Positions 1-4,873 of a stretch of DNA of 64,000 bases are shown here, piece after piece. The first letter of the stretch is position 1. Each line of letters opens with the position of its first letter. The notes below the pieces were generated by a model. It was not told where the DNA came from and made no database searches. It saw nothing but the letters and a program-made list of their open reading frames with translations. Source of the stretch: Alphaproteobacteria bacterium (GTDB lineage: Bacteria; Pseudomonadota; Alphaproteobacteria; SP197); contig OZ245842.1 in the NCBI GenBank assembly GCA_965228895.1, forward strand, positions 2,688,001 through 2,752,000. The letters run 5' to 3'. The translations under genes were made by a program, and so were the position numbers.

Positions 1-854
1 GCGGCCCGCTGCGCGGCCGCATCGTTGGACGGCGCCATGCCGCTCAGGAACGTCATCAGGGCGGACGGGCCGCCCGCGTTGGCGTGAAACCAGTAGAAGA
101 ACACCGTCATGCCGTAGGAGATGTCGTGCAGGGGCGTGCCGGCCGCGACGCCCTCATCGAACTCGGTGGCCCGGCCCTGCATATCGCCCGCATCTGGCAG
201 GGCCAGCGTCGCGAAGTATTCGGCCGATCCCTCGCCCCACCAAATGCCGCCACCGGTCACCGTGCTGTACTGCTCCGGCGAGAGCGACTCCGCTTGAACG
301 CAGTGGAAGATCTCGTGCGCGATCGTCTGCGCGATGTCTTCGGGATGACCGCCAGGCCCGAACAGGTAGGCGGTGATCAGACATTCATCGTCCAGCGCCG
401 GACCGTTGGCGACACCCAGGATCGAGCGCTCAGGCTCGCCATCCGCCATCACCGACTCCTGATCGTCCAGGATCAGGATGGTGATGTCGTCGACCCGGTA
501 GTTGCCGAGCATACCCAGCGCGGCGATCGCGGCACGCGCGCCGCGTTCGACCTCAGGCAGCGCGCCCGGCCGAAAAGCCCAATCGGCGTTGATATCGCGG
601 ATGCCCCGCATGTTGCGTGTGCCGCCTGGCGTTTCATAGGGAATGTCGAACTCGACAATGCAGGTCAGGCCCGAGATGGGATCGTAGATTCCCGTCGCCT
701 CGCCCGAGGTGCCAAAGTCGCTCAGATAGTCGGCATCCATGCAGTCGCCGAACTCAGCGCGGATTGCTTGTGGGGTCAACACCAACACCGCCATGACAAA
801 GCAGGCCAGAACGAGACACGCTCCCCTTAGGGCCAACACGGTTGCCTTTGTCAC
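1..854 (-). CDS. Secreted gluzincin-type zinc metallopeptidase-like protein (runs off the left edge; absent from the ORF track)
   Basis: Manual translation from GTG 854 (AGGAAGG RBS at 861-867): hydrophobic signal peptide ending QAIRA-EF, then IAHEIFHCVQ (HExxH, about 303-317) and WWGEGSAEYF (third-ligand Glu). No stop codon before position 1. Confidence 0.8.
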   Translation of the reverse strand, partial: MTKATVLALRGACLVLACFVMAVLVLTPQAIRAEFGDCMDADYLSDFGTSGEATGIYDPISGLTCIVEFDIPYETPGGTRNMRGIRDINADWAFRPGALPEVERGARAAIAALGMLGNYRVDDITILILDDQESVMADGEPERSILGVANGPALDDECLITAYLFGPGGHPEDIAQTIAHEIFHCVQAESLSPEQYSTVTGGGIWWGEGSAEYFATLALPDAGDMQGRATEFDEGVAAGTPLHDISYGMTVFFYWFHANAGGPSALMTFLSGMAPSNDAAAQRA

Positions 855-1350
855 CTCGGACCTTCCTATCCGCGCTCGGTAGGCTGCTCGGATCTTAAGC
901 GAATTGATGTCAGTCTTACACCAGATCGACCTGAACTGTCACAGGACGGGCGTCGCTGGAAGGCCAGAACCGATCAGCGCTGGGCTGGCTCGAACGCGCG
1001 AGACCCTTTCGAACCCGCTATATGGACTCGCGACTCGAAAGGAGTTGTCGTCACAAAGCACGACACCAAACATCCGAAACAGTGCTCGTGAGCAACGGTA
1101 GCTGCGCTAACGCCGTCGCCTGGGCACGCGATTGCGATTTGAGCCGTACGACAAAATGCAGCGTAACTGGAAGCACCGGGTTCAACGCCAGCGTCGACCG
1201 AACGGCGTGTGCGAAGACAGCAATTGCCTTGACAGCTCATCGGTCAAGACCGATTGGTGTCGCCAAAGCGCGAAGCATGACGTCGAGCAGAATGTTCGGG
1301 ACTGGCCGTCGGCAAGCAGGCGCGGGACCCGGTCAGGGGACAGTACGTTG

Positions 1351-2676
1351 ATGGTGGACCGTCAGACTCAGCGACAAGAAGCGCTCGATGCCGCGGCACG
1401 CGGCGATCACCGTACGGCGTTGGTCCAATTGCGCAAGCTCGTTGAAGAAGCGCCAGGCTCATGGCTGCATCACGCCGATCTGGCGCGTGAGTATCGGTTA
1501 CTTGGCTATCTACAGGATACAATTACCAGCTTTCGCCAGGCCATTGCCTTGGAACCGGACCGGGCGGAACTGCGCTGCGAACTGATCGACGTCCTCAACC
1601 GCCTCGACCGAACGCGGGTGATCGAGATCGAGTGCAAGGAGCTGCTTGACCGATTGGCGAACCGCGCCGATGTCCTGTTGCCAGCAGCCATCGCGCTCGA
1701 AAAGAGCGACCAGGTTGACGCCGCATTGGCGGCGCTTCGACGCCTTCTTGAAATTAAGCCCGACCACTTCGACGCTGAACAACACCTTAGACGCCTCCAA
1801 ACCGAACGGATCCCGCCCTGGCACTTCGCTATGATGAACGACGAGCCGCGCAATCAAGCATACGAGGCCGCGTTGAAGCGGGCGGTGACGCCGGACAGCC
1901 ACGTTTTCGAGATCGGAACGGGGTCGGGCATTCTGGCCATGCTGGCGGCACGTGCCGGTGCCAAGCGTGTCACGACGTGCGAAGCCAACCCACAGATTGC
2001 CAGGGCAGCAGCCGACATCATCCGTCACAACGGTATGGAGCAATCGATCACCCTAATCCCTCGTCCGTCTTGGGAGCTTGACGCGGACAAGGACCTGGGT
2101 GGACCGGCCGATGTCCTGGTCGCGGAGATCCTGAGCGACACCCTGCTCGACGAAGGTGTCCTGCGCACGACACAGCAGGCACGTAAGACGCTGCTAAAAC
2201 CGGATGCGCAGCTTATCCCTTACGCCGTCTCTGCAATGGCCCGCCTTGTCGGCGGCGAGGCTCTTGCCATGACGACGATGGTGGGAACGGTCTCAGGTTT
2301 CGATCTGTCGCCCTTCAACCGCTACATCCCAGCATCGCTCTCCATCAACACAGATAGCCGCGACCTTTTGACGCTGAGTGACGACTTGGAGGTCTTCCGT
2401 TTCGATCTGACGGAGGCAGTTCCCGAACCCGAAGAACGGCACCTCAGCTGCACGGCGACCGCTGACGGCCTCTGTGTCGGGATCCTGCAGTGGGTGCGTC
2501 TTTATCTCGATCACGAAACGATCTTCGAGAATCGGCCTGCCGACCGGTTCGCTCCATCAGCATGGCGTCAAAGACTGTTTCCCTTCGCTGAGCCGCTAGA
2601 AGTCTGCGCCGGCGACACAGTCGCCTTCCGGGCGGTCCACAACGTCGCAAGCCTTGCCTTTGACAGAATGACCTGA
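1351..2676 (+). CDS. TPR-repeat + PRMT-type (protein arginine N-methyltransferase-like) SAM-dependent methyltransferase
   Basis: Likely start ATG 1351 after AGGGGA (ORF track starts at 1132). N-terminal TPR-like helices, WHFAMMNDEPRNQAY, motif I VFEIGTGSG, double-E loop AEILSDTLLDEG, GFDLSPFN arm, SAWRQ (THW-loop equivalent). Confidence 0.85.
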   Translation: MVDRQTQRQEALDAAARGDHRTALVQLRKLVEEAPGSWLHHADLAREYRLLGYLQDTITSFRQAIALEPDRAELRCELIDVLNRLDRTRVIEIECKELLDRLANRADVLLPAAIALEKSDQVDAALAALRRLLEIKPDHFDAEQHLRRLQTERIPPWHFAMMNDEPRNQAYEAALKRAVTPDSHVFEIGTGSGILAMLAARAGAKRVTTCEANPQIARAAADIIRHNGMEQSITLIPRPSWELDADKDLGGPADVLVAEILSDTLLDEGVLRTTQQARKTLLKPDAQLIPYAVSAMARLVGGEALAMTTMVGTVSGFDLSPFNRYIPASLSINTDSRDLLTLSDDLEVFRFDLTEAVPEPEERHLSCTATADGLCVGILQWVRLYLDHETIFENRPADRFAPSAWRQRLFPFAEPLEVCAGDTVAFRAVHNVASLAFDRMT

Positions 2677-3018
2677 CTCTCCCGCAGGACACGGCTTCGG
2701 TGCTCTGCGCGAGCCTTCTCTCCAAAAAAGCTGGTCCTTGGTCAACGTTGACCACCCAACAAAAAGCCTCTGCGAGTCCACGGCTTGGAAGGGCTTGTGG
2801 TGGGGGTTCGGATGTGATCACCACGTGTTGCGCCAAGCTGTTGGGCTCTGAAAACGCAACACTGGCAGCACCGAATGGGAAGCCCGGGCTAACGCTCCGT
2901 CAGTTCGTTGTCGCCGATCGTCCGGTATGCCGGCATCGAATCTTTGCCGAGCGGGGCTGGTGGCGGCAACCGTCGGGAAGGCGTACATTGGACGAAGGGT
3001 CATCGTTCGTGGGTGCAG

Positions 3019-4716
3019 ATGTCGCAGGAAACTCCAAGGCAAACACAGCCTCTCGGCGTTCGTGCGTTTGTTGGGGTTTGCGGCGCGGGCGCAAGCAAGC
3101 TCGACAACCTGGATACTGTCTGTGGCAAACCGACCACCCGTTTGCGTGTCGGACCGACGTTGGTTGCGCTTGTCGGGCGAGACGAAGGCCCCCTCGCCTT
3201 TGATCAGTCGGTCAACGCACAAATCGTCTTTACCGGCCGGCCATTTGTCGATGATCGGCTGCTCGGAACCTGTCTGTTCGATGAGGGCGCGATCCCGGCA
3301 CCCGACCAAATCGACGGCAAGTTTGCCTGCCTCGTTCTCAAACCCGATGGGCTGGAGCTTCTGACGGATTTTATCGGCGCGGGCGCGGTGTTCTATGCTG
3401 TGGAAGGCGGGCGCCTTTATTTTGGCTCGCATCTGGGCCTGCTCGTGGCCGCCCTGCCCCATGCGCCCGAACTGAACGACATCGGGATTGCAAGCCAGCT
3501 TACCGGCGTACAGCTGTTCGACGAAACCCACTTCAGCGGGACATACAGACTAAAGGCGGGCGCTCAGCTGAGCGCCATCCTTAACACCGATCAGACAATC
3601 GACGTCCGCCAGTCCCACGGCAGTGGCATTCGCGGCTTGCTGGATATCGATGTCCCGCCGCTTACGACGGCCTCCTTTCGCGCTATGTTGGATAGCGGTG
3701 TCGCGCGCGAAGCCTACGACGCCAACTCCATCCTCATGCTGTCCGGCGGCCGGGATTCGCTCGCGATTGCCCTGGCGCACGCACCGACCCCGACACGCTG
3801 CGCCACCTATGGCGAGCCCAAGTCCATGGACGTGCTGAGGGCCAAACGGAGGGCCCGACGGCTCGGCCTGGAGTTCATGGCTGTGCCCTATCAGGACTGG
3901 ACGCTCGAAACCTACCAGGACCAGATCGTGGCGCTCAGTGCCGGGTGTTCGGGCTTGCAGACGGCGCACAACATCGTCGGTTTCGACTGGGTCAGCGAAA
4001 GGGCCAACCTGGCGTCCATCGGTTACCTTGGCGACGTGTTCAGAGACGCGCCGTTACGTGCGATGGAGGACGGTGCTGACGAAAGCGCTGTGCCGCCGCT
4101 CCTGGCGTTAAGGTTCAACGACCCGATCCTGAAGGACGTCTTCGCCAAAGAGCGTGAGACGATGTCAGAGTTCATCCTGGATACGTTTCGCGACCTCGCC
4201 CGCGACGTCGGCCCGCACAAAGCGCTCATGATCCTGCGTTTGCAATGGCATCAGGCGCGGTGGATCTCCATGACCTTTGACCTGTGCGACTGGTTTCTGC
4301 CCATCTCCTATCCCCTCATGCAACGCGATCTGATCGGTGCTTGGCTTCAGTGCGACCTGGAAAACCCGAAGGCTCGAGAGCACTTCAAACTCGCTCTGGC
4401 CGAAAGGCTGGCTGAACGTGGCTTTGCTGAAAACGCGCGCGGCAGCATTCCTGAACGGGTATGGAACAAGTTACTGGCGACCGTCACCAAGCTGAACAGA
4501 GGCGGTCGCGTCGTAAATCTTTGTGATTGGCAAGCGGTCATCGAGCGATCGCAATTCCGGCCAGAGAACTTTGATTGCGGCCATGACCGGTTGTCGGACT
4601 ACACCAGCCGTTCATGGGAGATCGTCCAGGCGGGGACCGAGCGAACCAACCTCAAACCGGCCGTCTATTCCGCCACCGCCATTGCCGCGGCAACCATGCG
4701 GTTCTCGCGAGGATAA
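3019..4716 (+). CDS. Asparagine synthetase-like ATP-dependent amide ligase (degenerate Ntn glutaminase domain + PP-loop domain)
   Basis: DGKFAC...TDFIG..AVFY...LYFGSH (Ntn-domain-like), LSGGRDS PP-loop, GYLGD. Start uncertain (ATG 3019 preferred over 2908). Confidence 0.75.
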   Translation: MSQETPRQTQPLGVRAFVGVCGAGASKLDNLDTVCGKPTTRLRVGPTLVALVGRDEGPLAFDQSVNAQIVFTGRPFVDDRLLGTCLFDEGAIPAPDQIDGKFACLVLKPDGLELLTDFIGAGAVFYAVEGGRLYFGSHLGLLVAALPHAPELNDIGIASQLTGVQLFDETHFSGTYRLKAGAQLSAILNTDQTIDVRQSHGSGIRGLLDIDVPPLTTASFRAMLDSGVAREAYDANSILMLSGGRDSLAIALAHAPTPTRCATYGEPKSMDVLRAKRRARRLGLEFMAVPYQDWTLETYQDQIVALSAGCSGLQTAHNIVGFDWVSERANLASIGYLGDVFRDAPLRAMEDGADESAVPPLLALRFNDPILKDVFAKERETMSEFILDTFRDLARDVGPHKALMILRLQWHQARWISMTFDLCDWFLPISYPLMQRDLIGAWLQCDLENPKAREHFKLALAERLAERGFAENARGSIPERVWNKLLATVTKLNRGGRVVNLCDWQAVIERSQFRPENFDCGHDRLSDYTSRSWEIVQAGTERTNLKPAVYSATAIAAATMRFSRG

Positions 4717-4797
4717 GGCTTGTCACCGTGGCCGGAACGTCGCCTGTACGCCGCCCCGGCAAACAGGGTGAACGTGACGGCACTTGGTTGAGAAATT

Positions 4798-4873
4798 TGG
4801 TAGCGGAGGAGGGACTCGAACCCCCGACACAGGGATTATGATTCCCCTGCTCTACCGACTGAGCTACTCCGCC
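4798..4873 (-). tRNA. tRNA-Met (CAT), probably elongator
   Basis: GGCGGAGTAGCTCAGTCGGTAGAGCAGGGGAATCATAATCCCTGTGTCGGGGGTTCGAGTCCCTCCTCCGCTACCA: 76 nt cloverleaf, anticodon CAT, encoded CCA, paired 1:72 (not initiator). Confidence 0.95.

Follow-up and report, generated by a model that had tools for sequence, protein, structure and literature searches.

Two eukaryotic arginine methyltransferases of the PRMT type frame the protein described here: PRMT9, which has a known spliceosomal substrate, and the PRMT7 of T. brucei, a homodimer that produces only monomethylarginine. PrmA, whose name many databases give to the bacterial family under study, has the class I Rossmann core in common with it and is not known to possess either the PRMT beta-barrel or the double-E loop. 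In the reviews consulted, PRMT-type protein arginine methylation is treated as a eukaryotic system, in line with a sequence-only reading of this DNA, which had held that the modification is not established in bacteria. That statement needs narrowing, however, since bacterial PRMT relatives are already in print: a 2012 review places the nearest ones in secondary-metabolite operons and proposes a bacterial origin for the eukaryotic PRMTs, and review passages on streptozotocin biosynthesis describe SznE/StzE as a methyltransferase of the arginine guanidino group, whose product, N-omega-methyl-L-arginine, is supplied to SznF. The 2012 review was the only paper turned up by our literature searches on bacterial or prokaryotic PRMTs, which returned no paper on a TPR-fused bacterial form.

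Such a TPR-fused form is encoded in the window, that is, the whole stretch of 64,000 nucleotides of alphaproteobacterial DNA that was analyzed. The gene occupies positions 1351..2676 of the + strand, stop codon included, and encodes a 441-amino-acid protein with TPRs and a PRMT7/9-type methyltransferase, present as a single copy in the window genome. The open frame listed for this strand spans 1132-2676 and begins with TTG; the ATG at 1351, preceded by AGGGGA 10 nt upstream, yields the 441-amino-acid product. A start at 1351 is sensible, given that the database copy of the identical protein is 441 amino acids long and that 450-amino-acid homologues with 72-75% identity align across 96% of the query. 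In a comparison with a homologue of 76% identity over 441 codons, 91, 50 and 252 differences were counted at the first, second and third positions, respectively, and this dominance of third-position substitutions points to a real, conserved gene under purifying selection.

The first 155 residues of the protein (1351..1815, + strand) form a TPR domain, in which nine helices at residues 2-153 of the AlphaFold model build four TPR-like pairs and a capping helix, with Pfam matches to TPR_19 (1.8e-06) and TPR_14 (2.2e-05). This domain is followed by the PRMT N-terminal helix motif WHFAMMNDEPRNQAY (residues 157-171; 1819..1863, + strand), the conserved form here of the helix that closes the SAM pocket (YFxxY / WHFxMLND..RN type), which a phmmer search of PDB sequences aligned with WHFIMLNDTKRNTIY of PRMT9 and FHYAMMNDEERNNFY of T. 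brucei PRMT7. The SAM-binding features of the Rossmann domain extend from motif I, VFEIGTGSG (residues 185-193), through VTTCE (residues 207-211), which contributes the post-I acidic residue (1903..1983, + strand). The double-E loop EILSDTLLDE (residues 259-268; 2125..2154, + strand), with its E259-x8-E268 spacing, was aligned residue for residue with SEIFGTMMLGES of T. brucei PRMT7 by the same search.

The C-terminal beta-barrel domain covers residues 282-441 (2194..2673, + strand), with strands at residues 282-439 of the model. It takes part in the full-length superposition on the PRMT7/9 barrels and superposes as a whole domain on those of PRMT7/9/3/6/1 (VIA-align, Z 27-31); its Pfam PRMT_C match is weak (E 0.043, residues 314-428). 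A helix-loop-helix insertion seen in the model at residues 303-325 of this barrel carries the GFDLS motif (residues 316-320; nt 2296-2310, + strand). The equivalent of the THW loop is SAWRQ (residues 403-407; 2557..2571, + strand), which aligns with tCWEQ of module 1 and SHWKQ of module 2 of PRMT9; at this position W405 is conserved in at least 90% of the family, Thr and His are not kept, and the His is an Ala in the window protein. Across an alignment of 56 family members, G189, G191, G316 and F317 are invariant, and E211, W157, H158, D164, R167, N168, E259, E268 and W405 are invariant or at least 90% conserved. The open frame at 1351-2676, the N-terminal TPR-like repeats and the full set of motifs that had been picked out from the letters of this DNA were thus all recovered, the repeats through the helices of the model and the Pfam TPR matches, and the motifs at defined residues of the translation and throughout the 56 relatives.

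Comparison with PRMTs of known structure linked the protein to PRMT7 and PRMT9 by sequence. Our phmmer search of PDB sequences gave E values of 2.2e-32 and 1.3e-30 for PRMT9, 9.4e-31 for T. brucei PRMT7, 4.6e-26 for mouse PRMT7, and 1e-9 to 1e-15 for PRMT1/3/6 and CARM1. The PRMT9 alignment paired query residues 123-282 with chain residues 102-262, running from the last TPR across the junction into the catalytic domain. When a profile built from the 56 family members was scored against the sequences of PRMT structures, mouse PRMT7 reached 316 bits (first module, 211.7 bits), bovine PRMT9 310 bits and T. brucei PRMT7 221 bits, compared with at most 151 bits for PRMT1/3, 136 bits for PRMT6 and 127 bits for CARM1. 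The bovine PRMT9 match was a single stretch (profile positions 68-435 against chain 49-450), showing that the TPR and catalytic parts align jointly with this enzyme.

The structural evidence was consistent with these results. The AlphaFold (AF2) model, built from the 56-member alignment, was confident throughout (pLDDT 94.6, pTM 0.87). Foldseek ranked bovine PRMT9 first (1e-25, 465 columns), followed by T. brucei PRMT7 (target TM 0.78), and VIA-align superposed the model on T. brucei PRMT7 with Z 31.3 (309 aa, rmsd 3.1, 28% identity), on human PRMT9 with Z 30.5 (285 aa), on bovine PRMT9 with Z 29.5 (400 aa, model 30-441 against chain 20-470), on mouse PRMT7 (4c4a) with Z 29.1 and on C. elegans PRMT7 (3wst) with Z 28.1. 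Other PRMTs gave Z 27-28, so that the lead of PRMT7/9 is modest, and identity to PRMT7/9 in the structural alignments is 22-29%. The predicted fold is therefore unambiguously that of a PRMT, with a modest lead for PRMT7/9. Of the PRMT hallmarks examined (Rossmann motifs, double-E loop, N-terminal helix, beta-barrel and THW loop), the protein lacks only the canonical Thr-His of the THW loop, which is also absent from the catalytic module of PRMT9.

Each of the solved relatives differs from the window protein in its architecture. PRMT9 (human 6pdm/9ay9, bovine 8rbk) has TPRs followed by a PRMT module in the same order as the window protein; sequence alignment extends over the junction and the WHFxM(L/M)ND..RN helix, the whole unit superposes (the 400-residue match given above), and the THW loop of the catalytic module lacks the His (CWEQ), like SAWRQ here. 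However, PRMT9 is a eukaryotic enzyme with only 22-25% identity to the window protein, and its pseudo-dimer is formed with the help of a second PRMT module; the window protein has a single module and ends at residue 441. T. brucei PRMT7 (4m36/4m38/5eku) is single-module like the window protein and is the best structural match to its catalytic part, but it is eukaryotic and has no TPR domain. The metazoan PRMT7 (mouse 4c4a, C. elegans 3wst), in turn, has tandem modules and, unlike the window protein, no TPRs.

Taking into account that many relatives carry the PrmA name, we considered whether the protein could be a PrmA-like protein methyltransferase acting on another acceptor, such as lysine, an N-terminus or glutamine. 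Several sources call the relatives "50S ribosomal protein L11 methyltransferase", and the Pfam PrmA match has an E value of 1e-11. This match is nevertheless confined to the Rossmann core (profile positions 154-240 of 296), as is that of Methyltransf_25, and the NCBIfam prmA model (TIGR00406) scores 38.4 bits, far under its cut-off of 183.15. In addition, the top fold and sequence matches listed are all PRMTs, and both glutamates of the double-E loop are conserved, making this alternative improbable. PrmA identity itself was rejected on the core-only Pfam match, the TIGR00406 score and the unmatched N-terminal L11-binding domain. A place in a defence system was also considered and discarded, as the sole PADLOC match, to mad2, was restricted to the Rossmann core (6.2e-12, residues 174-291).

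The sequence-only reading had proposed a single-module PRMT7/9-like enzyme with N-terminal TPRs, not a methyltransferase of the PrmA type, and had looked to structure prediction with Foldseek for PRMT7/9 as the top hits. PRMT9 and PRMT7 are indeed the top fold and sequence matches, the beta-barrel is present in the model, and PrmA and small-molecule methyltransferase models fall far below their cut-offs; taken together, the phmmer, Foldseek and VIA-align results and the barrel support this proposal. An active, SAM-dependent guanidino-N-methyltransferase of the PRMT fold is very probable.

The gene belongs to a large bacterial family. A HMMER scan of 1.84 billion cluster representatives (50%-identity clusters) returned 12,728 matches at E<=0.001, 3,912 at 1e-10 and 690 at 1e-30, and the best 150 matches listed all had E values of 6.5e-57 or better. 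The nearest ESM Atlas clusters, 97-100% bacterial, were of proteins with TPR and PrmA assignments (score 0.98), and a eukaryotic PRMT9 cluster came next (0.95). In species genomes, 79 loci were found in at least six bacterial phyla, including Azospirillum, Sphingomonas, Sphingobium, Ramlibacter, Magnetococcus, Streptomyces and Actinomadura as well as members of Bacteroidota, Cyanobacteriota, Bdellovibrionota and Kiritimatiellota. Two architectures occur in the family, namely TPR plus methyltransferase and methyltransferase alone (about 349 aa). A word-indexed search found relatives named "L11 methyltransferase", "tetratricopeptide repeat protein", "type II protein arginine methyltransferase" and "PRMT7". 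The TPR-fused bacterial protein is an uncharacterised member of an already-known kind of enzyme, whose sequences are already in databases, some of them under KEGG-style PRMT names.

Among close relatives, homologues of 71-76% identity were identified in three related genomes, and the distribution is patchy: the gene is present in 6 of 60 other related genomes (E<=1e-10), in 3 of 23 genomes of a neighbouring genus and in neither of the two same-genus genomes. Its presence in only 6/60 related and 0/2 same-genus genomes means that whatever the enzyme modifies is not essential.

A tree of 79 catalytic domains was built with a quick IQ-TREE run (LG+G4), omitting the partial sequences L011, L084 and L091, and L072 and L090, which had no ORF match. 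In this tree, the window protein pairs with the copy of the related genome G029 (100% support) and then with that of a Rhodospirillaceae MAG (96%), within a 12-row clade (92%) in which every row has an N-terminal extension of at least 100 aa. This clade is nested in a 38-row set (99%) composed of 26 extended and 12 methyltransferase-only rows.

Searches for longer or fused forms that used the single protein returned four weak matches, one of them a methyltransferase embedded in an NRPS. When the alignment was used instead, most matches were proteins with TPRs alone, and two long forms that combine TPRs with PRMT modules also appeared. Each of these two is about 1,090 aa long; their scores against the bacterial profile are 3e-93 and 4e-81, and one belongs to the green alga Parachlorella. 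In the tree, both are placed among the bacterial sequences, beside one from Kiritimatiellae (98% support), a position that hints at exchange between domains in the TPR-PRMT family.

We also weighed whether the gene could have been imported recently from a eukaryote, or the assembly contaminated with eukaryotic DNA, since the nearest solved relatives are all eukaryotic and the bacterial tree includes a protein of a green alga (P0281). This explanation is scarcely credible: the gene lies between bacterial genes on a single bacterial contig of 5.5 Mb, its family includes the 690 cluster representatives at E<=1e-30 and spans at least six phyla, with the predominantly bacterial ESM Atlas clusters mentioned above, and the protein is 71-76% identical to other alphaproteobacterial copies, compared with 22-29% to PRMT7/9.

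The window gene stands alone. Its divergent neighbour (3-854, minus strand) encodes a HExxH-type protein, and on the other side lies an ORF for a 565-aa PP-loop protein with weak similarity to asparagine synthase (AsnB-like; 3019-4716), followed by a tRNA-Met gene (4798-4873, minus strand) and mnmA. No promoter-like site was detected at the locus, and the one terminator-like site is within the next gene. The 71-76% identical homologues have a housekeeping neighbourhood, in the order EPSP-synthase-family gene, DUF2948, UPF0262, LMW phosphatase, the homologue, maf and RNase E/G. A tblastn search with the two window neighbours against 91 loci gave no match, and Pfam searches with the 54 ORFs closest to the gene at 20 loci (one or two per side, chosen from 135 ORFs within 3.5 kb) revealed no recurring family. 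Clustering of the ORFs of 83 loci and the window showed that neighbours recur only within actinobacteria (SznF-like and Rieske proteins) and within Azospirillum (an MFS transporter). There is, in consequence, no conserved neighbour to name the substrate.

The segment carrying the gene is variable: in the same-genus genomes both flanks are retained, with 87% identity on the tRNA-Met/mnmA side and 80% for the HExxH gene, but the methyltransferase is missing and the AsnB-like gene lies elsewhere. Its G+C content is about 0.60 over 900-4700, compared with about 0.68 beyond. No direct repeat of the tRNA-Met end (att-like repeat) was found at the locus. The lower G+C content and the adjoining tRNA-Met gene, together with the patchy distribution and an in-frame TGA that breaks one of the three copies of the neighbouring genus, that of genome G025, could fit a catalytically dead scaffold or pseudoenzyme, or an accessory gene decaying in a variable region. 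Such a status is highly improbable for a protein in which the SAM-binding and catalytic motifs are all intact and conserved, the substitutions fall predominantly at third positions and the model is confident over its whole length.

A more serious alternative is that the enzyme methylates free L-arginine, or a small guanidino metabolite or short peptide, at the omega nitrogen, as SznE/StzE does, with the TPRs serving scaffolding or regulation. SznE/StzE is bacterial and, as described in review passages, methylates a guanidino nitrogen of arginine, the chemistry proposed for the window protein; the 2012 review, which assigns the closest bacterial relatives of the PRMTs to operons for secondary metabolites, points in the same direction. 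In our dataset, ten actinobacterial methyltransferase-only homologues, which have no TPR extension and share 35-41% identity with residues ~116-437 of the window protein, adjoin genes for a Rieske protein and for a 460-472 aa protein with Haem_oxygenas_2 and cupin domains. The latter combination is the SznF architecture, and the adjoining homologues are, on the strength of this gene neighbourhood, probable relatives of SznE/StzE. These ten sequences keep the catalytic motifs of the window protein; indeed, conservation of the WH, RN, IGxGxG, CE, double-E, GFDL and W motifs does not differ among the 51 extended, the 18 methyltransferase-only and the 10 SznF-neighbour sequences, so that these motifs do not reveal whether the substrate is a protein or a free amino acid.

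The genomic setting and the tree argue against this alternative. No SznF-like gene was found in the window genome (98.7% complete), either with a SznF-like protein as query or with PF14518, for which a control search matched 2 of 14 genomes; no SznF-like HDO + cupin N-oxygenase flanks the gene, and no biosynthetic-cluster genes lie beside it in the window. By contrast, SznE/StzE belongs to a biosynthetic cluster with SznF, uses free L-arginine and has no TPR. Furthermore, the rows with a SznF-like neighbour, which have no TPR extension, fall outside the 38-row set that contains the window protein, and the four-repeat TPR domain of the latter is packed on the catalytic domain as in PRMT9, an arrangement typical of protein recognition. 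We therefore consider a free-arginine enzyme possible but unlikely.

We favor by a little, as the substrate, an arginine residue of a protein or peptide that the TPRs recruit, and this is the best reading of the PRMT9-like TPR arrangement, the lack of a biosynthetic partner and the position in the tree. According to this protein-substrate proposal, the Rossmann domain of a single-module class I methyltransferase would bind SAM, E259 and E268 of the double-E loop would hold the guanidinium of the substrate, and a terminal (omega) nitrogen of the guanidinium would receive the methyl group. The four TPRs, collinear with the TPR and first module of PRMT9, would most likely recruit the protein or peptide. 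The product may be protein-bound mono- (or symmetric di-) methylarginine, and, if the enzyme behaves like every PRMT solved so far, its active form is presumably a homodimer whose subunits meet through the helix-loop-helix insertion of the barrel. Several observations count against this proposal: the only biochemically described bacterial relatives in the literature consulted, SznE/StzE, use free L-arginine; the catalytic motifs fit either kind of substrate; the canonical His of the THW loop is an Ala; the Z lead over other PRMTs is modest; the gene is patchily distributed; and the gene has no conserved neighbour that would name its substrate.

A broader proposal, which we advance only tentatively and consider rather doubtful as a whole, is that the protein is a genuine bacterial protein-arginine methyltransferase whose TPR and catalytic unit shares ancestry with the TPR and first module of PRMT9, that the bacterial family is the stock from which eukaryotic PRMT7/9 arose, and that PRMT-type methylation of protein arginine is a widespread, overlooked bacterial modification. 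Because PRMT9 has the same collinear TPR-catalytic layout, the bacterial origin proposed for the eukaryotic PRMTs could be tested directly by phylogeny. If the family makes free methylarginine instead, it would point to an unexplored metabolite outside streptozotocin-type clusters. Should its substrates be bacterial proteins, bacterial physiology would gain a further regulatory modification, and the enzyme would provide a tractable single-module, TPR-bearing model of PRMT9/PRMT7.

The methyltransferase gene lies within a variable segment (window 900-4800), in which G+C is about 0.60, below the value of about 0.68 beyond it. Between the same flanking genes, one same-genus genome holds approximately 6 kb of other DNA. 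The segment is abutted by a tRNA-Met gene (4798-4873, minus strand), and a search for a direct repeat flanking it found none.

Downstream of the methyltransferase, the plus-strand ORF at window 3019-4716 encodes a 565 amino acid PP-loop protein with an SGGRDS motif. Its likeness to asparagine synthase is weak (TIGR01536, 6e-07; 28.8 bits against a cut-off of 267), and a Pfam search at 0.01 returned no match. Same-genus genomes carry copies of this protein that are 75-77% identical, at other loci, as well as paralogues at 66-68% identity; the gene is linked to the methyltransferase in none of the 91 loci. At the start of the window, a minus-strand ORF (3-854, extending past the window start) encodes a protein with the HExxH motif IAHEIFH, probably a secreted, metalloprotease-like protein. 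This product matches the flagellinolysin and MXAN_6640 HExxH models weakly (0.004-0.005), and Pfam assigned it to none of its families.

Among homologues of the methyltransferase in other genomes, a copy with 71-72% identity in a related genome (L011, G025:C3, 9613-10891) is split by a single in-frame TGA near residue 70, which marks the gene as a pseudogene or else stems from an error in sequencing. At L012 (G043:C66, 8661-13045, minus strand), the genes for a 524 amino acid TPR-PRMT homologue and for an AMP-binding (acyl/aminoacyl-adenylate forming) enzyme upstream of it share four bases, where the start of the former overlaps the stop of the latter, suggesting that both genes are co-transcribed in that lineage. 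In a Flavobacteriales MAG (L067, 3397-9439), proteins that combine TPR and SpoIIE (PP2C phosphatase) domains are encoded on each side of the TPR-PRMT homologue, a neighborhood of signaling type.

The bacterial family profile also matched two long TPR and PRMT-module proteins, P0281 of Parachlorella kessleri (1088 amino acids; 3e-93) and P0287 (1096 amino acids, 608 member sequences; 4e-81); their matches to PRMT7/9 are at 1e-27 to 1e-31. Both were placed within the bacterial tree, adjoining a Kiritimatiellae sequence, and they lie as close to the profile of the bacterial family as to PRMT7/9.

Finally, at L063, L065, L073-L077, L080, L082, and L088, homologues consisting of the methyltransferase only are found with an SznF-like Haem_oxygenas_2 + cupin protein and a Rieske protein. 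The actinobacterial SznF-like-paired loci span Streptomyces, Actinomadura, Streptosporangium, and Actinokineospora, and have the appearance of biosynthetic pairs of the SznE/SznF type (N-nitroso or related).
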